This document shows positions 9,001 to 47,761 of a stretch of 64,000 nt of DNA, piece after piece. Below the pieces are notes generated by a model. That model was not told where the DNA came from. It made no database searches and saw only the letters and a list, made by a program, of their open reading frames with translations. Every line of letters begins with the position of its first letter. Positions within the stretch are counted from its first letter, which is position 1. The position numbers were made by a program, and so were the translations under genes. The DNA lies in assembly GCA_040954595.2 (NCBI GenBank), contig CM082579.2, forward strand, positions 13,827,834-13,891,833, read 5' to 3'. This stretch comes from Balanoglossus misakiensis (Eukaryota; Animalia; Hemichordata).

Positions 9001-12000
9001 ACATGGGTATTTAATGTTAAATGTAAATCCATAGGTTAATACGTGGCCAAAAGCACTCTAATTTGACATTGCTAATGGAACGATGACATTGAATCTGATT
9101 CTTTGCATCAGGGCAAACGGCGAAGCAAGGTTGATGATGCATCAGGGTAGATAGTGATGCAATCACTTCACTTTGACATTGGTATTAAATGCATATGGGG
9201 ATTTCAAGTTGATGATAAATCCCTGGGTTAATACGTGTCCAAAAGCACTGTACTTTGACATTGCTAATGCAACGATGACATTGAATCTGATTCTTTGCAT
9301 CAGGGTAAATGGCGTAGCAAGCTTTATGATGCATCAGGGTAGATAGTGATGCAAACACTTCACTTTGTCATGGGTATTAAATGCATATGGGGATTTCAGG
9401 TTGTTGAAAAATCTGTGGGTTAATACGTGTCCAAAAGCACTGTACTTTGACATTGCTAATGCAACGATGACATTGAATCTCATTCTTTGCATCAGGGTAA
9501 ATGGCGTAGCAAGCTTTATGACGCATCAGGGTAGATAGTGATGCAAAAACTTCACTTTGACATGTGTATAAAAAGCCTACAGGGGGATTTAAAGTTGTCT
9601 GTAAATCCCTGGGTTAATACGTGTCCAAAAACACTGTACTTTGACATTGCTAATGCAGCGATGACATTGAATCTGATTCTTTGCATCAGGGTAAATGGCG
9701 AAGCAAGGTTGATTATGCATCAGGGTAGATAGTGATGCAAGCTCTGCACTTTGACATGGGTATAAAATGCCTACAGGGGGATTTAAAGTTGTCTGTAAAT
9801 CCCTGGGTTAATACGTGGCTGAAAGCACTGTACTTTGACATTGCATATGCAATGGTGACATTGAATGGGATTCTTTGCATTAGGGCAAATGGCGAAGCAA
9901 GCTCAATGATGCATCAGAGTAGATGGTGATGCAAACTCTGCACTTTCACATGGGTATTTAATGTTAAATGTAAATCCATAGGTTAATACGTGGCCAAAAG
10001 CATGCTAATTTGACATTGCTAATGGAACGATGACATTGAATCTGATTCTTTGCATCTGGGCAAATGGCGAAGCAAGGTTGATGATGCATCAGGGTAGATA
10101 GTGATGCAATCACTTCACTTTGACATGGGTATTAAATGCATATGGGGATTTCAAGTTGATGATAAATCCCTGGGTTAATACGTGTCCAAAAGCGCTGTAC
10201 TTTGACATTGCTAATGTAACGATGACATTGAATCTGATTCTTTGCATCAGGGTAAATGGCGTAGCAAGCTTTATGATGCATCAGGGTAGATAGTGATGCA
10301 AACACTTCACTTTGACATGGGTATTAAATGCATATGGGGATTTCAGGTTGTTGAAAAATCTGTGGGTTAATACGTGTCGAAAAGCACTGTACTTTGACAT
10401 TGCTAATGCAATGATGACATTGAATCTGATTCTTTGCATCAGGGTAAATGGCGTAGCAAGCTTTATGATGCATCAGGGTAGATAGTGTTGCAAACACTTC
10501 ACTTTGACATGGGTATAAAATGCCTACAGGGGGATTTAAAGTTGTCTGTAAATCCCTGGGTTAATACGTGTCCAAAAGCACTGTACTTTGACATTGCTAA
10601 TGCAACGATGACATTGAATCTGATTCTTTGCATCAGGGTAAATGGCGAAGCAAGGTTCATTATGCATCAGGGTAGATAGTGATGCAAGCTCTGCACTTTG
10701 ACATGGGTATAAAATGCCTACAGGGGGATTTAAAGTTGTCTGTAAATCCCTGGGTTAATACGTGGCGGAAAGCACTGTACTTTGACATTGCATATGCAAT
10801 GGTGACATTGAATGGGATTCTTTGCATTAGGGCAAATGGCGAAGCAAGCTCAATGATGCATCAGAGTAGATGGTGATGCAAACTCTGCACTTTCACATGG
10901 GTATTTAATGTTAAATGTAAATCCATAGGTTAATACGTGGCCAAAAGCACTCTAATTTGACATTGCTAATGGAACGATGACATTGAATCTGATTCTTTGC
11001 ATCTGGGCAAATGGCGAAGCAAGGTTGATGATGCATCAGGGTAGATAGTGATGCAATCACTTCACTTTGACATGGGTATTAAATGCATATGGGGATTTCA
11101 AGTTGATGATAAATCCCTGGGTTAATACGTGTCCAAAAGCACTGTACTTTGACATTGCTAATGTAACGATGACATTGAATCTGATTCTTTGCATCAGGGT
11201 AAATGGCGTAGCAAGCTTTATGATGCATCAGGGTAGATAGTGATGCAAACACTTCACTTTGACATGGGTATTAAATGCATATGGGGATTTCAGGTTGTTG
11301 AAAAATCTGTGGGTTAATACGTGTCGAAAAGCACTGTACTTTGACATTGCTAATGCAATGATGACATTGAATCTGATTCTTTGCATCAGGGTAAATGGCG
11401 TAGCAAGCTTTATGATGCATCAGGGTAGATAGTGTTGCAAACACTTCACTTTGACATGGGTATAAAATGCCTACAGGGGGATTTAAAGTTGTCTGTAAAT
11501 CCCTGGGTTAATACGTGTCCAAAAGCACTGTACTTTGACATTGCTAATGCAACGATGACATTGAATCTGATTCTTTGCATCAGGGTAAATGGCGAAGCAA
11601 GGTTCATTATGCATCAGGGTAGATAGTGATGCAAGCTCTGCACTTTGACATGGGTATAAAATGCCTACAGGGGGATTTAAAGTTGTCTGTAAATCCCTGG
11701 GTTAATACGTGGCGGAAAGCACTGTACTTTGACATTGCATATGCAATGGTGACATTGAATGGGATTCTTTGCATTAGGGCAAATGGCGAAGCAAGCTCAA
11801 TGATGCATCAGAGTAGATGGTGATGCAAACTCTGCACTTTCACATGGGTATTTAATGTTAAATGTAAATCCATAGGTTAATACGTGGCCAAAAGCACTCT
11901 AATTTGACATTGCTAATGGAACGATGACATTGAATCTGATTCTTTGCATCAGGGCAAATGGCGAAGCAAGGTTGATGATGCATTAGGGTAGATAGTGATG

Positions 12001-15000
12001 CAATCACTTCACTTTGACATGGGTATTAAATGCATATGGGGATTTCAAGTTGATGATAAATCCCTGGGTTAATACGTGTCCAAAAGCACTGTACTTTGAC
12101 ATTGCTAATGTAACAATGACATTGAATATGATTCTTTGCATCAGGGTAAATGGCCTAGCAAGCTTTATGATGCATCAGGGTAGATAGTGATGCAAACACT
12201 TCACTTTGACATGGGTATTAAATGCATATGGGGATTTCAGGTTGTTGAAAAATCTGTGGGTTAATACGTGTCGAAAAGCACTGTACTTTGACATTGCTAA
12301 TGCAATGATGACATTGAATCTGATTCTTTGCATCAGGGTAAATGGCGAAGCAAGGTTGATGATGCATCAGGGTAGATAGTGATGCAAGCTCTGCACTTTG
12401 ACATGGGTATAAAATGCCTACAGGGGGATTTAAAGTTGTCTGTAAATCCCTGGGTTAATACGTGTCCAAAAGCACTGTACTTTGACATTGCTAATGCAAC
12501 GATGACATTGAATCTGATTCTTTGCATCAGGGTAAATGGCGAAGCAAGGTTGATGATGCATCAGGGTAGATAGTGATGCAAGCTCTGCACTTTGACATGG
12601 GTATAAAATGTCTACTGGGGGATTTAAAGTTGTCTGTAAATCCCTTGGTTAATACGCGGCGGAAAGCACTGTACTTGGACATTGCATATGCAATGGTGAC
12701 ATTGAATGGGATTCTTTGCATTAGGGCAAATGGCGAAGCAAGCTCAATGATGCATCAGAGTAGATGGTGATGCAAACTCTGCACTTTCACATGGGTATTT
12801 AATGTTAAATGTAAATCCATAGGTTAATACGTGGCCAAAAGCACTCTAATTTGACATTGCTAATGCAACGATGACATTGAATCTGATTCTTTGCATCAGG
12901 GCAAATGGCGAATCAAGGTTGATGATGCATCAGGGTAGATAGTGATGCAATCGCTTCAATTTGACATGGGTATTAAATGCATATGGGGATTTCAAGTTGA
13001 TGATAAATCCCTGGGTTAATACGTGTCCAAAAGCACTGTACTTTGACATTGCTAATGTAACGATGACATTGAATCTGATTCTTTGCATCAGGGTAAATGG
13101 CGTAGCAAGCTTTATGATGCATCAGGGTAGATAGTGATGCAAACACTTCACTTTGACATGGGTATTCAATGCATATGGGGATTTCAGGTTGGTGAAAAAT
13201 CTGTAGGTTAATTCGTGTCGAAAAGCACTGTACTTTGACATTGCTAATGCAATGATGACATTGAATCTGATTCTTTGCATCAGGGTAAATGGCGTAGCAA
13301 GCTTTATGATGCATCAGGGTAGATAGTGTTGCAAACACTTTACTTTGACATGGGTATAAAATGCCTACAGGGGGATTTAAAGTTGTCTGTAAATCCCTGG
13401 GTTAATACGTGTCCAAAAGCACTGTACTTTGACATTGCTAATGCAACGATGACATTGAATCTGATTCTTTGCATCAGGGTAAATGGCGAAGCAAGGTTGA
13501 TGATGCATCAGGGTAGATAGTGATGCAAGCTCTGCACTTTGACATGGGTATAAAATGCCTACAGGGGGATTTAAAGTTGTCTGTAAATCCCTGGGTTAAT
13601 ACGTGGCGGAAAGCACTGTACTTTGACATTGCATATGCAATGGTGACATTGAATGGGATTCTTTGCATTAGGGCAAATGGCGAAGCAAGCTCAATGATGC
13701 ATCAGAGTAGATGGTGATGCAAACTCTGCACTTTCACATGGGTATTTAATGTTAAATGTAAATCCATAGGTTAATACGTGGCCAAAAGCACTCTAATTTG
13801 ACATTGCTAATGGAACGATGACATTGAATCTGATTCTTTGCATCAGGGCAAATGGCGAAGCAAGGTTGATGATGCATCAGGGTAGATAGTGATGCAATCA
13901 CTTCACTTTGACATTGGTATTAAATGCATATGGGGATTTGAAATTGATGATAAATCCCTGGGTTAATACGTGTCCAAAAGCACTGTACTTTGACATTGCT
14001 AATGCAACGATGACATTGAATCTGATTCTTTGCATCAGGGTAAATGGCGTAGCAAGCTTTATGATGCATCAGGGTAGATAGTGATGCAAACACTTCACTT
14101 TGACATGGGTATTAAATGCATATGGGGATTTCAGGTTGTTGAAAAATCTGTGGGTTAATACGTGTCCAAAAGCACTGTACTTTGACATTGCTAATGCAAC
14201 GATGACATTTAATCTGATTCTTTGCATCTGGGCAAATGGCGAAGCAAGGTTGATGATGCATCAGGGTAGATAGTGATGCAATCACTTCACTTTGACATGG
14301 GTATTAAATGCACATGGGGATTTCAGGTTGTTGAAAAATCTGTGGGTTAATACGTGTCCAAAAGCACTGTACTTTGACATTGCTAATGCAACGATGACAT
14401 TGAATCTGATTCTTTGCATCAGGGTAAATGGCGTAGCAAGCTTTATGACGCATCAGGGTAGATAGTGATGCAAACACTTCACTTTGACATGGGTATAAAA
14501 TGCCTACAGCGGGATTTAAAGTTGTCTGTAAATCCCTGGGTTAATACGTGTCCAAAAGCACTGTACTTTGACATTGCTAATGCAGCGATGACATTGAATC
14601 TGATTCTTTGCATCAGGGTAAATGGCGAAGCAAGGTTGATGATGCATCAGGGTAGATAGTGATGCAAGCTCTGCACTTTGACATGGGTATAAAATGCCTA
14701 CAGGGGGATTTAAAGTTGTCTGTAAATCCCTGGGTTAATACGTGGCTGAAAGCACTGTACTTTGACATTGCATATGCAATGGTGACATTGAATGGGATTC
14801 TTTGCATTAGGGCAAATGGCGAAGCAAGCTCAATGATGCATCAGAGTAGATGGTGATGCAAACTCTGCACTTTGACATGGGTATTAAATGCATATGGGGA
14901 TTTCAGGTTGTTGAAAAATCTGTGGGTTAATACGTGTCCAAAAGCATTGTACTTTGACATTGCTAATGCAATGATGACATTGATCTGATTCTTTGCATCA

Positions 15001-16985
15001 GGGTAAATGGCGAAGCAAGGTTGATGATGCATCAGGGTAGATAGTGATGCAATCACTTCACTTTGACATGGGTATTAAATGAATATTGGGATTTCAAGTT
15101 GATGATAAATCCCTGGGTTAATACGTGTCCAAAAGCACTGTACTTTGACATTGCTAATGTAACGATGACATTGAATCTGATTCTTTGCATCAGGGCAAAT
15201 GGCGAAGCAAGGTTGATGATGCATCAGGATAGATAGTGATGCAATCACTTCACTTGGACATGGGTATTAAATGCATATGGGGATTTCAAGTTGATGATAA
15301 ATCCCTGGGTTAATACGTGTCCAAAAGCACTGTACTTTGACATTGCTAATGTAACGATGACATTGAATCTGATTCTTTGCATCAGGGTAAATGGCGTAGC
15401 AAGCTTTATGATGGATCAGGGTAGATAGTGATGCAAGCTCTGCACTTTGACATGGGTATAAATTGCCTACAGGGGGATTTAAAGGTGACTGTAAATCCCT
15501 GGGTTAATACGTGGCGGAAAGCACTGTACTTTGACATTGCATATGCAATGGTGACATTGAATGGGATTCTTTGCATTAGGGCAAATGGCGAAGCAAGCTC
15601 AATGATGCATCAGAGTAGATGGTCATGCAAACTCTGCACTTTCACATGGGTATTTAATGTTAAATGTAAATCCATAGGTTAATACTTGGCCAAAAGCACT
15701 CTAATTTGACATTGCTAATGGAACGATGACATTGAATCTGATTCTTTGCATCAGGGCAAATGGCGAAGCAAGCTTTATGATGCATCAGGGTAGATAGTGA
15801 TGCAAACACTTCACTTTGACATGGGTATTAAATGCATATGGGGATTTCAAGTAGATGATAAATCCCTGGGTTAATACGTGTCCAAAAGCACTGTACTTTG
15901 ACATTGCTAATGCAACGATGACATTGAATCTGATTCTTTGCATCAGGGTAAATGGCGAAGCAAGGTTGATGATGCATCAGGGTAGATAGTGATGCAAGCT
16001 CTGCACTTGAACTTGGGTATAAAATGCCTTCAGGGGGGTTTAAAGGTGACTGTAAATCCCCAGTTTAATACGTGGCGGAAAGCACTGTACTTTGACATTG
16101 CTAATACAATGGTGACATTGAATGTAATTCTTTGCGTTAGGGCAAATGGCGAAGCAAGCTCAATGACGCATCAGAGTAGATGGTGATGCAAACACTTCAC
16201 TTTGACATGGGTATTAAATGCATATGAGGATTTCAAGTTGTTGAAAAATCCGTAGGTTAATACGTGGCGGAAAGCACTGTACTTTGACAAAATGCAATGG
16301 TGCCATTGAATGTGATTCTTTGCATTAGGGCAAATGGCGAAGCAAGCTTTATGATGCATCAGAGTAGATGGTGATGCAAGCTCTGCACTTTGACATAGGT
16401 TTTCAATGCATATGCATGGGTGTTTAAAATTGACTGTAAATCCCTGGGTTGATACATGGCCAAAAGCACTGTAATTGCTAATGCAACAGTGATTTTAATT
16501 CTGATCTTTTGCATCAGGGTAAAAGGCGAAGCAAGGTTGATGATGCATCTGGGAAGATGGTGTTTCAAGCCCTTCACTTTGACATTGGAATATAATGCAT
16601 AAGTGGATTTAAAGTTGATTGTAAATGCCCAGTTTAATACGTGTCCAAAAGCACTGTACTTTGACATTGCTAATGCAACGATGACATTGAATCTGATTCT
16701 TTGCATCAGGGTAAATGGCGAAGCAAGCTTGATGATGCATCAGGGTAGATAGTGATGCAATCACTACACTTTGACATGGGTATTAAATGCATATGGGGAT
16801 TTCAAGCTGATGATAAATCCCTGGGTTAATACGTGTCCAAAAGCACTGTAATTTGACATTGCTAATGCAATGGTGACATTGGATGTGATTCTTTGCATTA
16901 GGGCAAATGGCGAAGCAAGCTCAATGATGCATCAGAGTAGATGGTGATGCAAACTCTGCACTTTCACATGGGTATTTAATGTTAA

Positions 16986-18765
16986 AGTGAACCGACACCT
17001 TCCTTGTAGAGAGATTCTAATTTGCGTCGTTTTTATTCACTTTCACTTATCGCGCAGCAGCGTAGCGTCGATCTCGATATGCAGCGTGACGTCACAAACT
17101 AGTCACCAGTAGCAGACGCCACCGTGCGCACGCTAACGTACACAGACATTTGACATGGGTGGCTGCCTCGCAAGTGGGAGCAAAAACAGAGTTGGCAAAA
17201 ACACGGCGAAAGGTTTTATAAAAGTTCCCGACCCTTCAGGGACAGTCAAAATGCAAATCGAGCTGGAAATTGGGTGTCAAACATTGGCATATTATTTCGG
17301 TGCTTATTGCTGAGACAGATGATACTTTTGCTTCGGAAATGTTCGTGTTCAACTAGGCCCTATATCGTGAAGCATATTGCAAAAAAAAACTACACAGCAA
17401 AAATTGTCGAAACAGCCGGGGCTCCTGATTACCTTTGATCACCATATGACGAAACCGATTTTTTGGCACTGTAAATCAAAACTCTGATCGGAAGAAAGTA
17501 GTGTGGCGGAAATAGGCCTACTAGTGAACACTGTGTTTGTCGCGTACCCAAGCTGTGAATGCATCGCAAAACCATTTCCAAAGACAAAAACGACCACCTC
17601 TACCATCTGGAAGCACCACAGATGTACTCGAAACATGACAATCGGAGTTTCTGCCTCCCTTTGATCAACAAAGCCGCATCTTTTCACAGCTGTTGATCAA
17701 CGTAAAGGATGGTAGACACGTGTGGTAGACATTTTCGCGAGAGTGTCAATAGGTTTACTTTCTATTCTTTTGGGAAATCACGAGGGTGCCTATTATGACA
17801 TGGGTGACTAAATGTCAAAAATTATCGCATGGCTTCGTGATATGTCGTTCAAGTCTTTATCTAACGGCCTTGTCAAGAAATCTATTTCATGGCAGCACCG
17901 GCATTCCTTGACAGTAGAAATAACTTCGCATTTACCGCAGCGCAGCTACACCATGAGCGTGATGAAAGACGAAGCCGATCACTCTTCTCGATCGTCTTTG
18001 CTGTCTACACTTGCCTCTGTACTATTGGAATCAGTTTCACTTGAGTCGCCTACCATCTCATCGCTGCTGTATTCGGGTTCGTACAACAATCCGACGATAT
18101 CTTCGTTTGAAAACTCCATATCGCGTGGTCGTTTTTGTCTTTGGAAATGGTTTTGCGATGCATTCACAGCTTGGGTACGCGACAAAAACAGTGTTCACAA
18201 GTAGGACTATTTCCGCCACACTACTTTCTTCCGATCAGAGTTTTGATTTACAGTGCCAAAAATTCGGTTTCGTCATATGGTGATCAAAGGAAATCAGGAG
18301 CCCCGGCTGTTTCGACAATTTTTGCTGTGTAGTTTTTTTTTTGCAATATGCTTCACGATATAGGGCCTAGTTGAACACGAACATTTCCGAAGCAAAAGTA
18401 TCATCTGTCTCAGCAATAAGCACCGAAATAATATGCCAATGTTTGACACCCATTTTTCAGCTCGATTTGCATTTTGACTGTCCACCGAAGGGTCGGGAAC
18501 TTTTATAAAACCTTTCGCCGTGTTTTTGCCAACTCTGTTTTTGCTCCCACTTGCGAGGCAGCCAGCCATGTCAACTGTCTATGTACGTTAGCGTGCGCAC
18601 GGTGGCGTCTGCTACTGGTGACTAGTTTGTGACGTCACACTGCATATCGAGATCGACGCTACGCTGCTGCGCGATAAGTGAAAGTGAATAAAAACGACGC
18701 AAATCACTCATGTTTTTCACAAAGATTTATTAGGAATCTCTCTACAAGGAAGGTGTCGGTTCACT
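16986..18765. mobile_element. Non-autonomous Kolobok-type DNA transposon with very long (~610-640 bp) TIRs
   Basis: TTAA at 16982-16985 and 18766-18769 duplicating the satellite ATGTTAAATG site; termini AGTGAACCGACACC...GGTGTCGGTTCACT (5'-RR..YY-3' with TTAA fits Kolobok rather than piggyBac); TIRs 16986-17597 and 18125-18765. Confidence 0.85.
17810..18119 (-). pseudogene. Frameshifted remnant of a KolX / P2X7-ballast-like Cys-rich protein
   Basis: Manual minus-strand translation: MEFSNEDIVGLLYEPEYSSDE...acidic..., then across frameshifts RLRLSSRSWCSC and CGKCEVISTVKECRCCHEI, resembling the WCxCGxC..ECxCCxE motif. Confidence 0.55.
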
Positions 18766-19160
18766 TTAAATGTTAATCCATAGGTTAATACTTGGCCAAA
18801 AGCACTCTAATTTGACATTGCTAATGCAACGATGACATTGAATCTGATTCTTTGCATCAGGGCAAATGGCGAAGCAAGGTTGATGATGCATCAGGGTAGA
18901 TAGTGATGCAATCACTTCACTTTGACATGGGTATTAAATGCATATGTGGATTTCAAGTTGATTGTAAATGCCCAGTTTAATACGTGTCCAATTGCACTGT
19001 ACTTCGACATTGCTAATGCAACGATGACATTGAATCTGATTCTTTGCATCAGGGCAAATGGCGAAGCAAGCTCAATGATGCATCAGAGTAGATGGTGATG
19101 CAAGCTCTGCACTTTGACATAGGTATTCAAAGCCTTATCACATAGCGAGATTATTACGCC

Positions 19161-19219
19161 ATGAATATTCATAAGACCAGTGTATATAAGTAAGAAGAGA
19201 ATGCCACTTGTGGCCAATC
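19161..19219 (+). promoter_or_regulatory. Putative Pol II promoter in repeat A
   Basis: Palindrome ATGAATATTCAT 19161-19172, TATATAAG 19183-19190, Inr-like CCAATCC 19213-19219 about 30 nt downstream. Confidence 0.5.
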
Positions 19220-19242
19220 CCTTGCTTCCAGACTTAGAAGTG

Positions 19243-19479
19243 ATGATGACTGACGGACGCAGTAATACTCCGGCTACCACAAGCTTGCCTTTATCGGCTA
19301 CCACGGCCACTTTTACACAGGCTCATGTAGCAGGGCCTTCAGCTAGTCAAGGCAGCTCTACACGTGTTTCGGTGCAAGTCCCGGAAGGCGCAGCTTCTCA
19401 GGCTCAGGTGGTGGCAGGCGATACGCCCGCTCAGCATAATAATAGGGATGGCCAAGATCAGCGTTTATCGCAGCAGCAG
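19243..19479 (+). CDS. Putative shared leader exon (79 aa, T/A/S/Q-rich) of the PAT-like element
   Basis: ATG at 19243, open frame to CAG|GTAATT donor at 19479/19480, phase 0. Confidence 0.6.
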
Positions 19480-19627
19480 GTAATTATCAGTTTTTGGCTC
19501 ATTAGCGGAATGTAAATGTCCTTCGGTCTTTGGCTAGGTTTTGTACATACATGTTTCATCGGCCATAGTTTGGTCGGTTTAGTTCGATTATGTTGTTATA
19601 TTTATTGGGTGTACTGTTAACACTATT

Positions 19628-20035
19628 GTGCAATAGTAGGCGCTCTGGGAGCACCAGGTGGAGTTGCACGAATATGTTATTATGGATGGTGCAATAGTAG
19701 GCGCTCTGGGAGCACCAGGTGGAGTTGCACGAATATGTTATTATGGATGGTGCAATAGTAGGCGCTCTGGGAGCACCAGGGGGAGTTGCACGAATATGTT
19801 ATTATGGATGGTGCAATAGTAGGCGCTCTGGGAGCACCAGGTGGAGTTGCACAAATATGTTATTATGGATGGTGCAATAGTAGGCGCTCTGGGAGCACCA
19901 GGTGGAGTTGCACGAATATGTTATTATGGATGGTGCAATAGTAGGCGCTCTGGGAGCACCAGGTGGAGTTGCACGAATATGTTACTGTGGTGGCACAATA
20001 GGTGTTCTGTGAGCACTGGGCGGAGCTGCATGAAC
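19628..20035. repeat. 61-bp minisatellite, 6 near-identical copies plus one degenerate copy, inside the predicted intron
   Basis: GTGCAATAGTAGGCGCTCTGGGAGCACCAGGTGGAGTTGCACGAATATGTTATTATGGATG repeating from 19628 with period 61. Confidence 0.95.
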
Positions 20036-20527
20036 ATTGTTCATGTAGTGGAGAGCAATAAAGGAATATGCGGGGAGCATCGTAGAGTGTGTTAAAAAAA
20101 AAAAAAAAGCATTCGACTGAAGTTCCATGCAATGTTTGATATTCTGTACAACGGTTGGAATGACGGAATGTGTGCAAGGAGTGCGTAATTAGGTAGATTT
20201 GCATATGAATGGGTAACAGTTATTTTAGAGCCACGCACACAATGGACATTGTTTAAGGCATGCCAGGTGGGGCGTGCATTCAAAAGATACCATATGGTTG
20301 TGGAGTGCTCCTGTGAATTTGCATAAGTTCTTTCTATTGTTCTGTATGCTCATAGTATCATGCATGTTGTTTTGTGGAATACGGTCATGATATTGGGTGT
20401 GACTTCGAATGTAGCCGAAATGGTGTCTGGTAGTGGAATTGTCTTACGCATGGGATATTGTAAAGTAACACTGTTAGATGATATCAGGATGTGACGTTGA
20501 CTGATATATTTGCCTGAATTGTTTCAG

Positions 20528-20998
20528 GTTAATGAGAAGTTGACACTGCTAATGAAGAAAGTTGACAAAATCGAAGAAACAGCGGGTGTAGCATCTGTAG
20601 ATGAAGCCTTGCATAAAGTGATGGAATTCGCGCATACCCCAGCCTTCTCATCAAGACCACAGGTGTTGAGTGCTCTACGTACGTTGGTGGATAGAGCTAC
20701 TTTGGTGTCGCATCCTAAGCTGCAGAGATTTCGAGCTGTATTGTCGCAGTTTGAAGCGAATGATTTTGGAGAGGACGCTGGACGCTTGATCATTCTGTTA
20801 CTGGGTAACAAAGAGGAAGAAGAGATTGCGTCGAAAGTTTCAAAATTCTTAAAACACAGGCCTTCCAACGATCGTTTTCGTCCGTATGGCCGAGGAAGGA
20901 GAAGGCAATCGTATGGGAAAGATTTCCGATGTTTTAGATGTGGCCAGCCTGGTCATTTTGCCCGCAATTGTCGAATGAAGCCAGATCAGGAAACGTGA
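20528..20998 (+). CDS. gag: Gag-like protein with CCHC zinc knuckle (main exon)
   Basis: CFRCGQPGHFARNC knuckle after basic GRGRRR tract; TTGTTTCAG acceptor ends at 20527, phase 0. Confidence 0.85.
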   Translation, partial: VNEKLTLLMKKVDKIEETAGVASVDEALHKVMEFAHTPAFSSRPQVLSALRTLVDRATLVSHPKLQRFRAVLSQFEANDFGEDAGRLIILLLGNKEEEEIASKVSKFLKHRPSNDRFRPYGRGRRRQSYGKDFRCFRCGQPGHFARNCRMKPDQET

Positions 20999-21263
20999 AT
21001 TTGTCTTGTAATTCAGTGACTGTAATGACGTTATTTTGGGATACATAATGAAATAAATACACCCGTCTTTATTGTATGCTGCATATTTGTTTATTTGTGT
21101 TGACGAATGATAAGTACATGTCCCATGTTTGAAGATTTGCATGTACGTATGCATATATATAATGTGGTTTAGGTTACCTCTCGATGGGAGGGGCCTTAAC
21201 TAGGCTCTTTGCTTTTGCAACCTGCCATTTGTAGGATCCTGTCGAGGGGCGCCCCCACATTTC

Positions 21264-23486
21264 ATGACGGTTGATATCACCGTTTTGTTGATGGAATCCT
21301 CTTTTGTTTGCTGTTGGTTTCAGCCACCAGTATGGGAAAATGACTTTATGGTGGATATGCATGCTGTCCCGAGAACCCAATATTCGTGGAGAACGCTTGG
21401 GGGCGCCCCTCGTCAGGGTCCTCACCATACCTCGCCTTCAATAGCTATGATAGCACGCGGAGTAGAGTTTGCAACTCCTGATGACTTGGTATTTCGGAAT
21501 ACGGAAGATTTCATGGCCGGGCAGATACATGAACATGGTGATTATTGGGACATGATTACAGACCATATACATAACAAGAATGACATTATGGACTGGATAA
21601 GGAATCGTGTTAGTATTTCACAATATTTTACCCATTTCAAGGGGGAGTTTAAAGGGCAACAGTATGATCATGATATTCCACCCCCTAGGGTGTTTCAGAA
21701 TCATCCGAATTGTCGTCAGCATGGTCGGTTTATCGCTCAGACTATCGCTGAACGTGTTAAAGCTGGAGCAGTATCAGTTTGGGGGTTGGTTGGTCGCCAC
21801 CAACCTCCTTATTTGGTTATGCCGATTTCGGTTGAACCGTCTAAACCGCGTATGTGTATTGACATGCGCTTTCTTAATCTATGGACGGAACCTCGTCCGT
21901 TCCACTTAGATAAGCTTTTTGAAGTCACTAGATACTTGGCTGAAGGCGATTTTCAGTTTAAGTGTGATGATAAGAGTGGGTACGACCACGTTTTAATACG
22001 ACATACTGATAGAATGTATGTAGGATTTCAATGGGCAGGGGTGTGGTATGTGAATAATTCATTACCTTTTGGTTGGAAGTTATCGGCATATGTATATCAC
22101 ACTTTGGGATATTGTGTTACTAGTTATGCTAGATTATTGGGAGTACCTTGCATTCAATATATCGATGATAGGCATGGGGGTGGATTAAAGTTGCCAGCTG
22201 ATGCAAGTTCTTCTTGGGATAGTTTGCAATGTGCACAGGCTGCAGCTTATATATTGTGTAAAATCGCTATTGATGCAGGATATTTTCTCTCTTTGGAGAA
22301 AAGTGTGTTATATCCTGTGACATCTTTGATAATGTTAGGTTTTTCAGTCGATTCGGTGAATAGATCCTTTTCTATCCCGGATGATAAAAAAACGAAGTTT
22401 TTAAATTTGCTGGAGGATGTTCTGTCACAGAGGGCAGTTCCACTTTTGACAATGCAGAAATTAATGGGGAAATGCATTTCATTTACGTTAGCATTACCAT
22501 GCGCTCGGTTATATGTTCGACAAATGGCCAATGCTTGTGGGAAAGCTCAGATATCGAGTAGAGCTTTGATACCTATAAGGGGACGCTTGAAATCTGAGAT
22601 TGTACAGTGGAAATCCATCTTAGATTCGGCGGGTAAATTTATTTGGCCAACCGAAAGTCATGTAGGGGTAAGGGTATTTTCTGACGCAAGTCAGTACAAA
22701 TGGGGTGCGGTTATGTACGTAGCTAATAACAAGGTGGTTATAGGAGATATGTGGGATAGTAAGTGGAAAGATTTTCCCATTATAAAGAAGGAAGCAGAAG
22801 CTTTGTGTAGAGCATTGGTTGGTTTTCAAGAGCAAATTCGTAATACTCGAGTTGATGCATATATCGATGCACTTCCTATAGTACAGGCATGGAATGGGGG
22901 AATTCCGGGAGCAAAAGATGTTGATTTGAATGAAATTTTGAAGCGTATCTTTGACTTCTGCTTTCAGCATAATGTTCGACTCACCCTTACATATATACCT
23001 TCTAAGGCTAATGATGCCGATCTACCTTCTCGATCTACATCATTGTCAAATGCTACTTTGACCGCTGTGGTATGGCAATTCCTGGAGGAAAATTTTGGTC
23101 CTCATCATATAGATGGCATGGCTGATGTTTCTAATAAGAAGTTATCTCGATATGTGTCACAGTTTCCTCAGATAGGATGTGAGGGTGTTAATTTTTTCCA
23201 GCATGTTTTCTCAGACAAGGATACCATTTATGTGTATCCACCATTTTTCTTAGTGGCTGCGACACTTAAACATGTCATTAGTCAGAGATTACATGCCACA
23301 GTGATTGTACCGAGAGGTCGTTTTCTGGCTCCGTATTGGCCCGTTATTAATCAAGTAGCAGCTGAGGTTATAAAGTTGGGTAGTCGAGGGGAAATAGGTA
23401 TTATTCAAGCCCCCTCTACTCAGGGTTATATAGATTATGAGTTGCGGTGTGACCTCTTGGCAGTCAAATTCGATTGGGATGTATAA
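21264..23486 (+). CDS. pol: DIRS-type reverse transcriptase - RNase H - adenine methyltransferase-like polyprotein
   Basis: 740-aa ORF: DDKSGY, LPFGW, YIDD (RT); FSDAS..WG, EAEA, N.AD.PSR (RNase H); IDGMA...YVYPPF (Dam-like MT). Confidence 0.93.
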   Translation: MTVDITVLLMESSFVCCWFQPPVWENDFMVDMHAVPRTQYSWRTLGGAPRQGPHHTSPSIAMIARGVEFATPDDLVFRNTEDFMAGQIHEHGDYWDMITDHIHNKNDIMDWIRNRVSISQYFTHFKGEFKGQQYDHDIPPPRVFQNHPNCRQHGRFIAQTIAERVKAGAVSVWGLVGRHQPPYLVMPISVEPSKPRMCIDMRFLNLWTEPRPFHLDKLFEVTRYLAEGDFQFKCDDKSGYDHVLIRHTDRMYVGFQWAGVWYVNNSLPFGWKLSAYVYHTLGYCVTSYARLLGVPCIQYIDDRHGGGLKLPADASSSWDSLQCAQAAAYILCKIAIDAGYFLSLEKSVLYPVTSLIMLGFSVDSVNRSFSIPDDKKTKFLNLLEDVLSQRAVPLLTMQKLMGKCISFTLALPCARLYVRQMANACGKAQISSRALIPIRGRLKSEIVQWKSILDSAGKFIWPTESHVGVRVFSDASQYKWGAVMYVANNKVVIGDMWDSKWKDFPIIKKEAEALCRALVGFQEQIRNTRVDAYIDALPIVQAWNGGIPGAKDVDLNEILKRIFDFCFQHNVRLTLTYIPSKANDADLPSRSTSLSNATLTAVVWQFLEENFGPHHIDGMADVSNKKLSRYVSQFPQIGCEGVNFFQHVFSDKDTIYVYPPFFLVAATLKHVISQRLHATVIVPRGRFLAPYWPVINQVAAEVIKLGSRGEIGIIQAPSTQGYIDYELRCDLLAVKFDWDV

Positions 23487-23705
23487 ATCATGTAGTTGTT
23501 ACTATTTATGGGATATATGATGGGTATACAGTAAATGGTTTTTCTTCTTTGGTGAATTTGTAGTATTGCAAAAGATCGTTAGGATTTTGATAGAGATATT
23601 ATAAGTGTATCTTCTATTAATGTCAATATTATCTGGTATGAAATAAATAAAATATTTTATGTCTTAGTAGACTGATGAATGGGTGTCTCTTATGATTTCT
23701 TCTAG

Positions 23706-24974
23706 ACATGTTGGATTTGTGGTGCTTTGAATGATACAACATCTCAGTCATGTGGTGTCTGTTCATCAAAAGCGATCCAAGGAACCGGTTTAAATGACTT
23801 CAACGGTGTTGACCTTCATCATATCGACCAACGTATCTCGGATTTATTAGGGGATCGATCTCCGTATGAGAAACAGAAAGACCGCTTAATACAAGAACTT
23901 GAGTTATTCCTTGCAAGACTCCCTGTGCCCAAGCCTGTAAGCCGAGCTAGCCCGCACGATATTGTTAGGTTTTTAGTCTTTAAGGATAAAGATGCGAAAA
24001 CGCAAGTCCATCGTTACACATGTGCATACTTAGGTCAGCCTGGTCGTGCGCCATGCGGTTGTCCTAAACGTCTGAGGATAGGTTCAGCCAAAAACATGAT
24101 ATCTAAGATCTCTTCATATTTTCAAGCACGACAAAAAGAAAATCCGAATCAGCGTTTTTGTAACCCCACTGATAGTATAATGGTGCAAAGGTATTTAAAG
24201 AAAATCTCTGAGGAGCAGGCACAAGCGAATGTGACAGTCAGACAGGCTAAGCCGTTATTTTTGCCGAAGGTCATTTGCGTCTTTGAGCATTTGTTAAAGT
24301 TACTCTCTTCATGTTCGTCACCACTCTTAGCATATATATATGCTAGAGACATGGCCGTGTTTAAGCTTTTATTTTTCTCAGGTGATAGAGCAGGGGATCT
24401 GGGTCACATTAAGACACAGGAGGTTCTTCGTTTCCCCGATAATTCAGGTTTGCTTTTCAATCATACATTTGGGAAGACTCTTCGTGGATGTAATTCAAAT
24501 ATGTTTGTACTTAAGAGATGTGCGGATACCCGTTTGTGTCCTGTAAATACTTTAGAGCGATATATTGATTTGTCTTTAAATCTAGGTGTAGATATCATGA
24601 CTGGGTATTTGTTTAGACCCACTAAACCTAATGGTGATATAGAGAACAAACCTTTGTCATCGCAGGTTATATATCATCGGCTTAAACTTTATTTACAATC
24701 ACTTAATATGGATGAAGGTGAGACACCACACAGTCTGAGAAGTGCGTGTGCTATCACTATGTCGTTAGCGGGTGCTCACGTAGATGAAGTCATGAGTCAT
24801 GTGGGTTGGAAAACTGAGAAGATGGCTGATTATTATACTAAGCTGTCAGTTGTTGCCAATATTGGCCGCCAAGGCAATAGAACGGAGGATTTGCTTGCTT
24901 CCATGCGACATATTGAAAGGTATAATGCAACTGAGAAACTTGTTGGATTCACAAGGGCTTTTCAGGCCAAGTAA
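23706..24974 (+). CDS. Tyrosine recombinase with N-terminal C4 zinc finger and ALOG-like domain
   Basis: Catalytic GDRAGD, HSLRSA, HVGW, YY; KTQVH..C..G.P..APCGCP.R ALOG-like insert; CWICGALNDTTSQSCGVC directly after TTCTTCTAG (23705). Confidence 0.92.
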   Translation, partial: TCWICGALNDTTSQSCGVCSSKAIQGTGLNDFNGVDLHHIDQRISDLLGDRSPYEKQKDRLIQELELFLARLPVPKPVSRASPHDIVRFLVFKDKDAKTQVHRYTCAYLGQPGRAPCGCPKRLRIGSAKNMISKISSYFQARQKENPNQRFCNPTDSIMVQRYLKKISEEQAQANVTVRQAKPLFLPKVICVFEHLLKLLSSCSSPLLAYIYARDMAVFKLLFFSGDRAGDLGHIKTQEVLRFPDNSGLLFNHTFGKTLRGCNSNMFVLKRCADTRLCPVNTLERYIDLSLNLGVDIMTGYLFRPTKPNGDIENKPLSSQVIYHRLKLYLQSLNMDEGETPHSLRSACAITMSLAGAHVDEVMSHVGWKTEKMADYYTKLSVVANIGRQGNRTEDLLASMRHIERYNATEKLVGFTRAFQAK

Positions 24975-25627
24975 AATGTGGGCGACTTTTCTGTGATCTG
25001 TTATATTATACGCAGCTACATGGTAGTTTCAATATAATAAATAGTATATACTTGTGGCTTGGACACTCCTCTTTCGTCCGTTTCCTTATTGACGCAAACC
25101 AGTGGGGGGAGTGGGGATTGAGGTTTGAGGATTGGGGATTTAGGTGGGGGAATCTTTGAGGAGAGTTTTATAAATAATGAATATCGCGGGCAAATGGACA
25201 ACATCAGGCTCTTTAACCCATTCCTTATAATAATAGGTATATCATTGAGCGGAGTGATTAGGCTTTAAATATTATATTATTCAAAGCCTTATCACATAGC
25301 GAGATTATTACGCCATGAATATTCATAAGACCAGTGTATATAAGTAAGAAGAGAATGCCACTTGTGGCCAATCCCTTGCTTCCAGACTTATAGAAGTTAA
25401 GATGTAATTAGGATCGAGTACCCAGGAGGGGGATAAGGTGACTATGTAGGAGGAAGTGGGGATCGGGTAAGGTGTTCGCCCACCCGCCCACCCCCTTTTT
25501 ATCATTTCGCTCATGATTACCAACATCAGGCTCTTTAACCCATTCCTTATAATAATAGGTATATCATTGAGCGGAGTGATTAGGCTTTAAATATTATATT
25601 ATTTAATGCATATGCATGGGTATTTAA

Positions 25628-26421
25628 GATGGGTCCCCCGGTTCTTTTTGCTCGTTGCTATGGGCCTTTGTAGGACATTACACCCCGATTTGGGCTAAGC
25701 CGTTTTCAGAGTCTAACACGGGGCCGGTAACTAGTTAAAAATCTGCACGATTGTGAGCGCGCGCCCCCTGACGCCATTGATATGCAAATTAGCTAGGTCA
25801 AATTTCAAAAGCCTAATGCTTTTTATTCCGTGACCTCAAAAACGAACTCGATACGTATTCATTAGTTGCTTGAACCAGGGAAGATCGTGACGGATTTTGA
25901 TTTCGAATATTATCGTTGTATCCTACGATTTCAGCATACCCGTACCACACCTGAAAAAGTCATCGATTTTGGGTGATTTTGGACACACTCTTCCACCGGT
26001 ATCGCTTCTTAGCACGACGAAAACCGAAAAAACGATCCGTCACACTGTGCGGAAGTGCGTTCTCAACAAGCAGGTCAAATTTGACTGGCGTACGTGGCCT
26101 ATGAAAAAAGCCTTAGGGATTTTCGTGAACGGTACAAAATCTCTGTGTACAAAACATTGGATTTTTAGCGTTCGATCCAGTTACTCTGGTTACAGGACGC
26201 GCACGCCATCCTGACCGCTGCTTTGCCGTATTAGCGTGGCGGCCTATGACCGGGCGGTAGCTGCCGTAAACATACTCGGACAGGGGGTGTGCACACAATC
26301 GTGTGTATTTTTAACAAGTTACAAGCCCCTTGTCGGACGTTCATAACGGTTTCGATCAAAATTGAGTGTAGTGTCCCATAAAGGCCCATAGCAACGAGCA
26401 AAAAGATACGGGGGACCCATC
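25628..26421. mobile_element. 794-bp Kolobok-type non-autonomous element (MITE)
   Basis: ~56-bp TIRs GATGGGTCCCCCG.../...CGGGGGACCCATC; TTAA at 25624-25627 and 26422-26425; no credible ORF. Confidence 0.85.
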
Positions 26422-26661
26422 TTAAAGCATGTTGAGATTTATCGTGTAATGTGCTATATAAGTAATAAATATTGTGTACAATAACACTTGTTTTATTGGA
26501 GTTTAAATGGAGCTGGGATCGAGGATGTGGGAGTTGGTCCTGGGACGAGGCTACCTCGTGGTTTTTTGCCCAGACGGACAGCGGACATTTTCTATGACGC
26601 TCGCCGAAACTGCTTTAATTTCGATCTTTCCCGGACATACCCCCAATAGTCACCAGTTACA

Positions 26662-27651
26662 ATGTCAGAAGATTACAGCTTTGTTGAATGGTGTGAAGCG
26701 GCGGGTCTTTCAAAAGACACTATCAGCTCACTAACCACCTCCCAGGTCACATCCTCCGAAGTACTGTAGTGCCTCAGCGACCAAGACATTGTCGACCTAC
26801 AACTACACATCGGTCAACATGGACTGCTTCGCCAGTTGCGAAACAAACTATGCTCTCAAAAAGCGGAATCCAAGCCCGTGGACACGCCGAAGCCCACCGG
26901 CGAGGCCACCAAAGAGGTAACCACACAAGACTTGGCAAAAAACAAGGCACTGAATGAGCTCCTCGAAGCCCTAGGCAACGATGCCCTCAAAGACGTCCTG
27001 TCCGACCAACCACAGGCCACAAACGCAAAGCCAGCCCCCGGGAAAGGTGAGCGAAAACCCCTACTAATTCCGGACTATGTCACCACGAAAAAGGGTTCGT
27101 TCGATCAACCAGACGAAACTGAACTGGCCGCCGACGGAGACACAAAATTAGTTATGCGAACAGCAAAACAACGACCGCGACCGGACCAAGTTTCACTGCC
27201 ACAGTGGATATCAGCCAATGCCCGCATTTTAAAGGCACTGATCGCCCGCGGTATGTCCACGGAAGAGACACTGGCATATCTCGATCATACAATTAATATT
27301 GGTGACTACACTCAATCATTCACAATCCCATCGGTCCTGACTTACGATCACGAGTGCAGGAAAAAGCAGGCTGCCGATTCGCTCGCGTGGGGAGCCGTAG
27401 ACCTTCACCTGTCACTCTATCACCTTGATGAGCGGCAAGTCGCGCCTCAGCAAAAAGGGAAAAATACCACAGGCAACTCCAAAGGTCGCAGTTATGATTC
27501 GAAAGGCTAGGAAATTTGCTTCGATTTCCAAAACCCACCGGGCTGCAACCGCACCTACTGTCGTTTTGCGCACATATGCATCGAGGACGGGTGCCACAAA
27601 GATCACCCACAACACCGCCACAAATCGCTAACTTCGAACAATCATGCCTAG
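26662..27651 (+). pseudogene. gag: Ngaro ORF1 (gag-like, C-terminal CCCH finger) with premature stops
   Basis: ATG 26662 MSEDYSFVEWC...; in-frame TAG at 26767 and 27508; GERKPLLIPDYV; ICFDFQNPPGCNRTYCRFAHIC after the second stop. Confidence 0.8.
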
Positions 27652-29452
27652 GATAAGGTTGCTAGCCCTCTTACTGATCACCTGGCAACGTGGAATGATG
27701 AACTGGAAAATGACATGGATCGCGACTTCATACTCAACGGTTTAAAATTTGGTTTCGATATCATTACCCCTGGTACCCCCCTTCAAAACGTGGACAGAAA
27801 AAAACTATGCGTCATGCTCTGACCCTGCTAATCGCAAGGCAGTCGAGGAACAAATTATCCATGAGGTTGATGTGGGTAATTACCGTGTCACAGCGGAGAA
27901 GCCTCAAATAATTAGCAGTTTAGGTGCCATCCCCAAGAAAAACTCTGACAAAGTCAGACTCATACACGACTGCAGCCGCCCAGTAGGAGGCGGTGTCAAC
28001 GCGTACGCTTCTACTTCAACTTTTAAATATGAAACTATAGATCACGTGGTGCAACTGTGCAAAGTTGGTTCATATCTCGCGAAAGTGGACTTGAAGTCAG
28101 CGTACCGTTCGGTCCCTATAAGCACGGACTCGCAGCGAGCTACAGGTCTCCGCTACAAATTTTCAGGACAGAATACCTCTACTTATATGGTGGACACCAG
28201 GCTACCATTCGGGGCAGCCAAAAGCCTAGAAATTTTCACCCGCATAACGCAAAGCGTCACCAGAATGATGTGCAGAAAAGGGTACCAGGCGGTAATTGTT
28301 TATCTTGATGATTTTCTGATTATAGCGGACTCCAAATTTGCTCGCGAGCAAGCATTTCTGGCTTTATTACAACTTTTACAGAATCTTGGCTTCACAATAA
28401 ACTGGGACAAAGTGGTAAACCCAACACAGCAGCTGACATTTCTTGGCATAGAGATAAATGCACGCACACGGACGCTTTCCCTCAATAAGGGCAAATTACA
28501 GGACTTGAGCGACCTTTTGCAACACTGGCTTCCTAAGCGGCGAACAACCAAACACGAACTCCAACAACTACTTGGCAAACTCAACTGGGCAGCACGGGTT
28601 ATTCGCGGCGGACGCACATTTTTGAGACGTCTTATTGACTTGTCAAACTCAGTTTCACAGCAGTCTCATCACATACGCCTTCACAGGCACGCGAGAGCGG
28701 ACATCCAATGGTGGACAAATCTGAGCAAAATTTTCAATGGTACGGCTTTCTTCATTGAGGAGACTCCGTTGCCCCAACAGGTTTTCTCCACTGATGCATG
28801 CGCAATAGCGGGAGCAGGTATTTTCGCGAATGACTGGTTTTATACACAGTGGTCGGCCGACCACCCTATCTTGGCAGACATGCACATCAACTTACAGGAA
28901 CTGTATACAGTCCTGATTGCATGCAGGCGATGGTGTTGTTTCTGGGACAAACGCCACATAGTGGTATATACAGACAATACCACAACCATGTACGCCATTA
29001 ACTCTGGTACATCCCGCAACAAAGCGGCTATGGAATGGCTTCGCGAGTTGTTCTGGCTGTCGGCACTATTTAATTTCCACATCACAGCCCGATACGTGAG
29101 CACCAAGGACAACAGCGCAGACTCCTTATCGCGTTTACACTCTGCCAAACACTACTTCACAGCAGTGAACCTTCTCGCCAATCACCAGCTACACCCGCTA
29201 AGAGATTGGTATCGCCATATGACGGATGCTTCTTACTCTCTTCTACTTCAGGGCCTGTGCAGCAACAGTTACACCAGCTGGATATGGACATCGGCAAATA
29301 CAAGCACGCAGCATATGCAGAATCAACAAAGAAAACATACAGCTCTCAACGTACTGCCTACCTCCGGTTTTGTCTCTACTTCGGCCTCAGGCCTGTGCCC
29401 TGCACGCAACTCACCGTCTGCAGATACATTGTCTTCCTGGCTCGGTCACTAA
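27652..29452 (+). pseudogene. pol: Ngaro RT/RNase H, one frameshift at A7 run 27798-27804
   Basis: RLIHDCS, KVDLKSAYR, RLPFG, YLDDF, TDAC, INLQEL, TDN, ADSLSR motifs. Confidence 0.9.
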
Positions 29453-30252
29453 AACCTAGTAGCCTCCCAGGATATTTGAACATTATTAGACTCTTACATG
29501 CTGAAGCTGGCTACGCCAACCCTTTAGAGAACAACTGGCTCCTTTGTATTTTGAAGCGGGGCATAGCTAGGACTCACAGGGTCCCACCCAGCCAAAAACT
29601 GCCAATCTCGCCTTCAATACTGAAGGACATTCACTCACACCTGGATCTGTCAATCCCCTTCAATGCCACATTTTGGTGCGCTTGTCTTTTCGCATTTTTC
29701 ACCTTCGCCAGAAAGTCCACATTGTTGTTAAAAGATCAAACACTGCCAAATTCCAGTAAGTAATTGCGCAGAGATGATGTGTCCGTTCACAACGGTCTGG
29801 CTACCATTACGGTCCGCCACACAAAAACTATCCAGTATGGCCAACGAGTACTAGAGTTGCCCCTTCAACAAATTGCCAACTCCTGCCTATGTCCGGTGGC
29901 ACCTTTCCACCAGATGCTTCATCTCTCCCCATCAGAGGAACCTCATACCCATTTATTTTCATATCGACCATCAGTCAATGCACCCACATCCTGCCCTCAG
30001 GTTCTCACTCATTCAAAGTTTACAAAGACACTCAGACTAGTCCTGAGCAATTGTGGCTACAAACCATCCCTGTATTCGGGTCATTCATTTCGCAGGGGAG
30101 GGGCAACATTTGCGGTGAACTTGGGTATTCCCCCTCTTCTCATCAAATTACAAGGCGGCTGGAGCTCAAATGCCTTCAAACGCTATACTGTCATTTCCTC
30201 GGAAACCAAATGTAGAGTCGCCAAATCCCTGGCGTTAGCCTTATCAGATTAG
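29206..30252 (+). pseudogene. Ngaro tyrosine recombinase with in-frame stop at 29761-29763
   Basis: FARKS, HTKT, CPV, GHSFRRGGAT, GGWSS..F..Y; two same-frame ORFs separated by a single TAA. Confidence 0.9.
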
Positions 30253-30789
30253 TAAGGGCGCTAGCACGCACTGCCTGTGTTGGGGGTATTGTTTGGCGGT
30301 TTTTCAGGCTATTTAGCCGGTCAACATGAGAAATTAAACTAGTTGACCTTTACCCCCAACACTTGTGTCTGTTTTATTAGTTTGTTAGTGATAGTAGTGT
30401 TGCCATTTAAGTGTACAATAACACTTGTTTTATTGGAGTTTAAATGGAGCTGGGATCGAGGATGTGGGAGTTGGTCCTGGGACCAGGCTACCTCGTGGTT
30501 TTTTTGCCCAGACGGACAGCGGACATTCCCCACCCTCCCTCCCATTGTTTAAAAAAATACGATAATGTTATTAAAAGTTAAGAGCTTTATCGTTAGAAGC
30601 GCTTTTAGTGTTACATGCTTCGCCTCTGCATTCTGTAATTCCTGTTCTGGCGGTTTTTCAGGCTATTTAGCCGGTCAACATGAGAAATTAAAATAGTTGA
30701 CCTTTACCCCCAACACTTGTGTCTGTTTTATTAGTTTGTTAGTGATAGTAGTGCTGCCATTTAAATATTAATATTATTACATAAACGAC

Positions 30790-46520: not shown

Positions 46521-47761
46521 AAACTGTTATAAGGGTGGTAATTTCAATGACTCCTTTATGATGTTATATCTGGCACTGTCTTTTATCTTTTTGTATGTGG
46601 TTGTATGTGTTTGCTTTGATTGTATTGGCGCATATACTGTAGTCTGTTATGTTTAGTGAAGATAAAGAGGAAATGCCTGATGGAAATAGATGAACTGGAT
46701 TTTATGCAGAAATAATATGCATGTATTCTGTTGGATTCAGTGGCAAACATGTACACCTATAACCAGTAATGATAATTTATATTATTTGCTTTCTTGCAGT
46801 TTTGTATAACCAAAGATATCCCAAGGTAAGTGTGTCTGCCATGTGAAGAGACCTTCAGCATAATGCACTGCAGTACAGTTCTGCATGTGATTCATTGCAG
46901 GTTACTTGTCATAACTCTGCTCTGACACAGAGCTTATCAGATAAGACAATTGTTCATAGGTTGTCTGTCATGTGTCAACACAAGTGTTCTGTTAAATAAC
47001 TAGTGCAAATGTGTTTAAATTTTATATGCATGTTTGGCCTTAGTATAGTTTTTGGAAATTGTGAAATTTGGGTATATAATTAAACCCTCTTAGTATCCAA
47101 GTGTCCAATTGCCTTGAAATGTACAGTCACTATGTGTAAATACAACAAATGCCATAATTTGAGTGGGAAATTTTTGCTGAGCTAAATTTCTTTAATCACG
47201 TCCTGTGTGAAAAAAATGTCTATAGTTTGTTTGAGAATGGCACATGCTGTCTTACTACTTTGACTTTATTGTATGTGCATGAAGTCAACAGATGTTGGAA
47301 TAGTTTCTACAGAAATGTCTACTTGTCTTACCCAGATTGCAAACAAATATTTCAAAAAGGTAAATGAGAAGAAAGTGTGATCGGCTGAATCTATGAATCT
47401 CAAACTTGGCACAATTATGTGGGCCTATGTAATTTCATGCATAACACTCTTGAATTTTTAATTACTCACTGTAATTGTCAGCTTTGATTGGAATTTTCAT
47501 ATGGACCTTATTTATATTAAAATGTGGAATAAAAAATCTGTTGACAGTCCTTGTACACTACATGTACCGGTATATGGTCAGGATCCCACATGCCAAATTT
47601 CAAGGTTGTGGACCATGTCAACAGGTTTATCCGTGACCTTGACCTACCCATAGGCCTATACCTCTACAGTGAAGCTATCACCACATTTTATTCTGGCATT
47701 CTGGTCTGTACAATAGTCCCGGACATTAAAATGTTAACAGTTATGTATTTATTGATTTCAG

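Follow-up and report, generated by a model that had tools for sequence, protein, structure and literature searches.

A tyrosine-recombinase retrotransposon of Balanoglossus misakiensis with a predicted coding leader spliced to alternative gag, pol and recombinase exons

We analysed a stretch of 64,000 nucleotides (nt) of DNA from Balanoglossus misakiensis (Hemichordata; GenBank assembly GCA_040954595.2, contig CM082579.2, positions 13,827,834 to 13,891,833 of the forward strand), referred to here as the window. At positions 19124-25603 of the window there is an intact 6.5-kb tyrosine-recombinase (YR) retrotransposon with split direct repeats at both ends. Gag, Pol and the recombinase are probably produced from one 79-codon leader that is spliced in phase 0 to three alternative downstream exons. 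The original prediction for this locus had proposed such splicing, together with a poly(A) signal for each open reading frame (ORF) and an unspliced or antisense replication template. Its core is strongly supported, because the arrangement is conserved across divergent families and because proteins in databases join one leader to different genes. Two of its parts fared less well: a separate poly(A) signal for pol is found in only half of the families, and an antisense template is disfavoured.

The putative leader exon lies downstream of a TATA-like box (19183-19190) within the left terminal repeat A1, which may serve as its promoter; TATA-like boxes, as judged by eye, are also present in A1 of relatives. 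The coding part of the leader (19243-19479; 237 nt, 79 codons from the ATG at 19243) is of low complexity, has no match in Pfam and ends with the phase-0 donor CAG/GTAATT (19479/80), the top-scoring donor among the 450 nt following the leader ATG. T content is 0.18 upstream and 0.42 downstream of this donor. Three non-overlapping frames without internal stops follow on the same (forward) strand: the gag exon (20528-20998; 156 amino acids (aa), with a CCHC knuckle matching zf-CCHC of Pfam at E 3.5e-07), the pol exon (21324-23486; 720 aa, with motifs of a reverse transcriptase (RT) bearing YIDD, of RNase H and of a Dam-like methyltransferase remnant) and the YR exon (23706-24974; 422 aa, with a zinc ribbon, an ALOG domain and a tyrosine recombinase domain). 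When the coordinates were re-read, the donor and the 79-codon leader were found where they had been placed before, and the phase-0 acceptors at 20528, 21324 and 23706 each opened a stop-free frame, as claimed. The TAG of the YR acceptor is an in-frame stop, also as noted earlier; an in-frame ATG at 23679, then overlooked, starts an 8-codon frame that is terminated by this TAG. The dependence on splicing that had been suggested for the YR frame was borne out, its first ATG being codon 131, within the ALOG domain. Since gag and pol have an ATG of their own at codon 9, YR alone strictly requires the leader in this copy. By themselves, the acceptors are unremarkable: among 355 AG sites in 19500-25200, a simple score ranked that of YR 3rd, that of pol 11th and that of gag 35th. 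It is the relatives, rather than this single copy, that make the case against chance.

Employing a 53-sequence YR alignment as the query, we collected 82 loci, 79 from metagenomes (80 of the 192 confirmed metagenome matches were taken in) and 3 from metagenome-assembled genomes (MAGs). At 78% DNA identity these were grouped into 47 families, the window element included. The zinc ribbon was found 42 times (in the window and in 41 other places), and the 35 occurrences with 175 nt upstream were scored. In 31 of these 35 loci, and in 20 of 21 families, the top AG in the 150 nt upstream of the zinc ribbon was in phase 0; the remaining AGs of those stretches were in phase 0 in 87 of 215 cases. The 31 phase-0 acceptors, 24 of them at exactly 42 nt, always stood behind a pyrimidine tract and read TAG in 24 loci and CAG in 7. 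Of the 4 misses, 2 were shifted by an indel; among the hits, the AG of L077 is probably not the true site. An ATG in an open frame upstream of the acceptor was found in none of the 31 loci, and one between the acceptor and the zinc ribbon in 5. As a separate observation, three loci (L080-L082) were animal-type retrotransposons on bacterial MAG contigs, most likely host DNA that had been misbinned.

The other signals recurred as well. As seen by eye, pol frames of relatives open behind an in-frame pyrimidine tract and YAG, and in 10 of 13 families the first Met comes after conserved W[ED]/F.P motifs. The survey of gag covered 19 loci; 8 families had an in-frame acceptor where the frame begins, and 7 of these either lacked a Met or had the first one at codon 47-111, against codon 9 in the window element; the other loci were frameshifted or unclear. 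Of 11 loci, 10, representing 8 of 9 families, had a low-complexity leader ORF of 41-85 codons ending in G/GT, with T content rising at the donor from 0.15-0.20 to 0.42-0.57; L071 showed no clear leader donor. No leader donor in these relatives matches the full consensus, and sub-consensus donors would be fitting if unspliced RNA is required as well. Acceptors, phase, TATA box, leader and donor thus all recur in the related ALOG-type families, in which the original prediction had proposed to look for conserved splice sites. Many relatives also carry tandem repeats, unrelated to each other, at the same place in the first intron (L001, L012, L016, L020, L022, L023, L031, L051, L071, L081 and L082); in the window element, a 61-bp tandem repeat of 5.9 copies occupies 19628-19984, inside the predicted first intron. 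Such repeats may play a part in RNA export or may be no more than tolerated filler.

Proteins in databases join the leader to each of the three genes. The oyster leader stops at the same residue and is continued by gag (P0150, P0152, P0143), by YR (7 models, several labelled as isoforms) or by pol (P0309). The mussel leader is joined to gag (P0137) or pol (P0365), and scallop models join a leader to pol. RefSeq models of amphioxus (P0217) and an acorn worm (P0122) consist of a leader of 70-73 aa with a final Gln, followed by a pol start homologous to that at 21324. Bivalves differ in that the leader seems to be composed of two exons and the gag frame to continue across the branching donor: contigs of up to 5.9 kb carry P0143 uninterrupted, and L011 has a strong phase-0 donor within the gag frame. 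Bivalve leaders (N-termini of P0150, P0137 and P0275) carry a conserved globular domain of ~105 aa without a Pfam match; in corals and deuterostomes, by contrast, the leaders are of low complexity.

Each frame of the window element is followed by a canonical poly(A) hexamer on the forward strand. AATAAA is located past gag at 21052-21057 and past YR at 25036-25041; past pol, two overlapping copies (starting at 23642 and 23646; 23642-23651) lie 55-64 nt upstream of the YR acceptor. Extra sense hexamers are AATAAA at 20057 in the first intron and ATTAAA at 22184 inside pol. In relatives, we counted AATAAA or ATTAAA within 200 nt past the stop codon and took the expectation from shuffled sequences. 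A hexamer followed gag at 14 of 18 loci, or 9 of 13 families (1.5 families expected), pol at 14 of 37 loci, or 12 of 24 families (5.0 expected), and YR at 28 of 61 loci, or 17.2 of 39 families (6.5 expected), an enrichment past all three stop codons. A separate poly(A) site for every ORF, as proposed, holds for this copy, and for gag in general, whereas no more than half of the families (12 of 24) have a hexamer past pol. In elements whose pol abuts YR, the pol RNA probably ends where the YR RNA does.

The pol acceptor is enclosed by a 25-nt inverted repeat, apparently undescribed, that the original prediction had overlooked, as it had the split direct repeats. The intronic arm lies at 21233-21257 and the exonic arm at 21398-21422, within the pol coding sequence. 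The predicted fold is rod-like with the acceptor at its tip (z -5.1; none of 200 shuffles was equally stable). Among relatives, an intron/exon duplex of 20-60 bp around the pol acceptor was found in 20 of 22 loci (p<=0.03 versus shuffles); the same test gave none in 24 loci at YR acceptors and p 0.47 at the gag acceptor of the window. Mean fold z was -3.9 (17) at pol acceptors versus -0.4 (20). With one locus taken per family, the best partner of the intronic arm was its own exon in 14 of 17 families (mean 56, versus 27 across families). In all 13 scanned elements, which were chosen for length and leave out, among others, L037, L071, L063 and L023, the stem was the strongest duplex of that span and was centred on the pol acceptor. 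Covariation in six alignable loci, drawn from four families of which two had served to derive the structure, amounted to 4 of 21 pairs in which both partners had changed, with pairing kept in 96% of cells; RNAalifold recovered the helix unprompted in two groups.

The mismatched oppositions in the stem indicate the strand on which it acts. With strand-neutral scoring, G-U outnumbered A-C by 44 to 10 (16 families, L071 dropped; p 3e-4), and the sense strand folded better in 12 of 16 families. The excess of G-U over A-C argues that the stem acts in sense RNA, and this bias disfavours the antisense replication template that had been offered as an option. Because the stem needs the gag-pol intron, it would be confined to pre-mRNA and genomic RNA.

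Several observations weigh against one leader serving all three exons through competing splice and poly(A) sites. The proteins with a joined leader are predicted gene models or ORFs without a name, and P0309 and P0365 have no stated source. Models from an acorn worm and Saccostrea run from the leader through a 5' piece of pol to YR, and no matching strong donor exists in the window element; a conserved internal donor in the 5' part of pol was found in none of 13 families. When pol acceptors were tested automatically, phase 0 came out at only 11 of 18 loci; many of these loci are decayed, and frameshifted copies confounded the result. Under a strict first-ATG rule, the top donor was in phase 0 and within the ORF in only 5 of 11 loci, and the TATA anchors of the donor test were picked by eye, as were the pol acceptors of the stem tests. 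A poly(A) hexamer is missing from 12 of 24 families past pol, and from about 22 of 39 past YR. No canonical poly(A) signal occurs from 25041 up to where B2, the right terminal repeat, ends, nor, as read by eye, in A2-B2 of 7 relatives, which leaves the 3' end of a full-length RNA unexplained. L037 and L071 have no significant stem, and the pyrimidine tract and the AG are not consistently paired. Direct occlusion of the tract and the AG is therefore not supported as a general function of the stem.

With these points taken into account, the most likely course of expression is the following. Transcripts would start from the TATA box in A1, be spliced from the leader to gag and terminate at the first poly(A) signal. 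RNA reading through this signal would meet the pol acceptor, which the stem would loop out, and after it that of YR; 55 nt past the pol signal, the latter would compete with cleavage there. Cleavage at each poly(A) signal would thus be set against splicing to the next acceptor, and the order of gag first, the looped-out pol acceptor second and YR last would yield much Gag and little enzyme. The stem is predicted to damp splicing to pol, or to tag unspliced RNA for what is likely its reverse transcription. A minor unspliced sense RNA, passing all poly(A) signals into B2, would be the template, which would explain why integrated copies retain their introns. Once copied, its ends would be restored from B1A2 and the circle inserted by the recombinase, following the general replication model for DIRS elements in the available text of PMC7192593 and PMC3266345. 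The same N-terminal leader on all three proteins is predicted to offer a possible route to co-assembly without a Gag-Pol fusion.

We tentatively extend this scheme to a whole clade of YR elements, whose hosts are cnidarians, molluscs, acorn worms and amphioxus. In these, a cascade of leader splicing and polyadenylation might replace frameshifting and overlapping frames, and the pol-acceptor stem might be a dual switch that limits pol mRNA and acts as an epsilon-like signal for packaging or RT loading. If true, such a switch would explain intron retention in a retroelement and perhaps the start of DIRS reverse transcription. It is also possible, though short of probable, that the stem has no role in splice choice and serves solely in packaging, RT binding or priming on genomic RNA. 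The inconsistent pairing of tract and AG would fit such a function, and a stem that forms only in RNA retaining the gag-pol intron is what a genome-specific signal needs. Its centring on the pol acceptor in every scanned locus argues for a part in splicing, and so does the position of the intronic arm, often 20-60 nt upstream of the AG, in the zone where a branch point is expected. Priming in DIRS elements is left unexplained in the available text of PMC7192593, a gap that a purely genomic signal could fill.

An unlikely variant is that only some of the splices are real, namely that from the leader to YR and perhaps that to pol, with gag and pol translated from their codon-9 ATGs or expressed from internal promoters. 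Those ATGs are in frame (20552 in gag, 21348 in pol) and count against a need for the leader in this copy; the gag acceptor is weak here, as its rank indicates, and in 3 of 13 families the conserved motifs of pol come after a Met. Most relatives, however, lack an early Met in gag and pol, databases contain leader-gag and leader-pol proteins, and the leader ATG comes first in any transcript from A1. Somewhat less likely still is that splicing proceeds as described but the template is an antisense RNA initiated in B2. Such an RNA would avoid these splice sites, and antisense-strand hexamers fall short of the shuffle expectation after pol (6.2 versus 9.2) and YR (6.9 versus 14.3); this deficit is the sole result leaning to an antisense template. 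Against it stand the tolerance of the stem for sense G-U and the better folding of the sense strand, the 9 hexamers on the antisense strand of the element, and the absence of any depletion after gag (8.2 versus 5.9). We rejected as very improbable the reading of the YR TAG as a nonsense mutation or read-through stop with chance splice sites in AT-rich spacers: although the ATG at 23679 is in frame 8 codons upstream, the alternation of TAG and CAG behind a pyrimidine tract and the missing upstream ATGs in relatives rule out a nonsense mutation, an upstream Met appears in only 5 of 31 loci even when the TAG is ignored, and identical repeats with open frames mark a young copy.

The element itself belongs to a known class. 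Its left end A1 (19124-19236) is identical to A2 (25278-25390) across 113 nt, and B1 (25199-25281) to B2 (25521-25603), the right end, across 83 nt, all on the forward strand; the overlap of B1 and A2 is the predicted circle junction. The insertion site is a 192-bp satellite. The flanks match satellite units, the left flank of A1 continuing the satellite and the right flank resuming it without duplication. A 4-nt core (19124-19127 at the left end) is common to the target, to both ends of the element and to the B1/A2 overlap, and comparison of the flanks at this locus revealed no target duplication. Identity of the repeats and openness of the frames indicate that the copy is young.

Gag, RT/RNase H and a tyrosine recombinase are present, and neither a DDE integrase nor a protease was found by Pfam, homologues or motifs, as is the rule for the DIRS order. 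Split direct repeats of the A1-B1A2-B2 type are those of PAT-like elements; the inverted terminal repeats and internal complementary region of DIRS1-like elements are absent, the terminal repeats being direct only. Ngaro elements share split direct repeats, and the weak methyltransferase-like region in pol argues against that assignment. An ALOG domain (PF04852, E 9.4e-19, residues 51-168 of YR) lies N-terminal to the catalytic domain (Phage_integrase, E 4.6e-11, residues 198-380), preceded by a zinc ribbon recognised by pattern as a four-cysteine motif at residues 2-19, as in ALOG-type retroposons. By its sequence features, then, the element is an ALOG-type tyrosine-recombinase retrotransposon (the class of Iyer and Aravind) with PAT-type ends. 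Pfam matches in pol were weak (RVT_1, E 0.009; Dam, E 0.01; RT_RNaseH, E 0.095), that of Dam at residues 582-696 scoring 16 bits, under the cut-off of 28.1, with a YPP motif at 638. Pol has 71 homologues, the best with 65% identity; the nearest named proteins are from acorn worms (65% and 61% for pol, 48% for YR). No relatives were found in viral contigs, and Rfam gave no match at E<=0.1 across 19000-25700.

The predicted expression programme, with its conserved stem as a candidate RNA switch, is apparently undescribed. A common leader combined with rival acceptors and poly(A) sites is familiar from the adenovirus major late unit and from the switch between secreted and membrane IgM. The leader of adenovirus does not code for protein, and with a DNA genome the virus needs no unspliced RNA template. 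Among retroelements, some fungal Ngaro elements have introns. ALOG-containing DIRS1-like retroposons (PMC3537659) share with this element a zinc-knuckle Gag, RT-RNase H, a zinc ribbon plus ALOG in the recombinase, direct repeats and occurrence in marine animals, and have a methylase-like domain, of which pol here has a weak candidate. The main text of that paper is silent on splicing and introns and describes neither a leader exon or acceptors nor poly(A) signals or a stem; it calls animal ALOG copies mostly disrupted, whereas this copy is intact. PAT-like DIRS elements (PMC4157794, PMC3266345) likewise have the order A1-ORFs-B1A2-B2 and no target duplication, and carry a methyltransferase-like domain, for which the match in the present element is weak; the available text mentions no splicing programme, and the ORFs of the present element do not overlap. 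In the literature on DIRS, PAT and Ngaro elements, as far as its text was available, ORFs are overlapping or separate and no splicing within elements was found. A description of the leader-splicing programme or the stem was likewise not found in the literature covered, outside which lie Repbase reports, subscription papers and supplements.

Parts of the programme have counterparts elsewhere, according to the available text of the papers concerned. Foamy viruses (PMC7828637) also produce Pol separately from Gag through a spliced RNA with a suboptimal splice site, and have RNA elements in the genome for packaging. They differ in having long terminal repeats (LTRs), a protease, a DDE integrase, env, an unspliced gag RNA and one 3' end, whereas the present element has a shared coding leader and a gag with its own poly(A) signal. 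The plant Ty1/Copia element EVD (Oberlin 2017, PMC5580714) couples splicing to early termination, so that one RNA encodes Gag alone and structural protein is made in excess; it is an LTR element with a single splice, and its Pol comes from full-length RNA. In the LAP2alpha exons of TMPO and ZNF451 (PMC4495291), a DIRS gag serves as an alternative terminal exon, and the authors infer that the donor element bore an acceptor and a poly(A) signal. That case is a capture by host genes from a DIRS1 element with inverted terminal repeats, and no splicing within the element is described.

How the three ORFs are expressed, which RNA is copied and how reverse transcription is primed are questions largely open for DIRS-order elements. 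A conserved splice programme explains why YR and pol frames are often without start codons and have been taken for broken. Exact junctions can now be defined for existing RNA data of oyster, coral and amphioxus, and the stem is a defined, mutable cis element with which splice control can be set against packaging or priming. Cassettes of acceptor, ORF and poly(A) signal are ready-made terminal exons, and offer a route for host capture of gag, ALOG and YR domains, as inferred for LAP2alpha.

The surroundings of the element are rich in other insertions. The 192-bp satellite, in ~90 copies, occupies 1-16981 and 18650-19141 and was the target of this element and of others. One of these is a non-coding insertion at 17020-18704 with terminal inverted repeats of ~580 nt (98-99%), likely a young non-autonomous DNA transposon. 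Between A2 and B2, past the second promoter copy, there are two strong donor-like sites at 25438 and 25467, which could affect read-through or splice into flanking DNA. An insertion of ~800 nt resembling a miniature inverted-repeat transposable element follows at 25623-26426, with inverted ends of 144 nt (79%). In the adjoining Ngaro-like element (26474-30764), with split repeats of 94 nt and 117 nt, the pol and YR frames overlap, gag has an ATG of its own at 26662 and in-frame stops occur; this layout is the classic one and contrasts with that of the putatively spliced element. Pieces of an LTR-type pol and of the RT of a long interspersed nuclear element lie on the reverse strand at 36435-38339 and 39058-41788. 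Finally, an open frame of 2447 aa on the forward strand (47756-55099) is of the Helitron type, with OTU protease, Rep/helicase and endonuclease domains.

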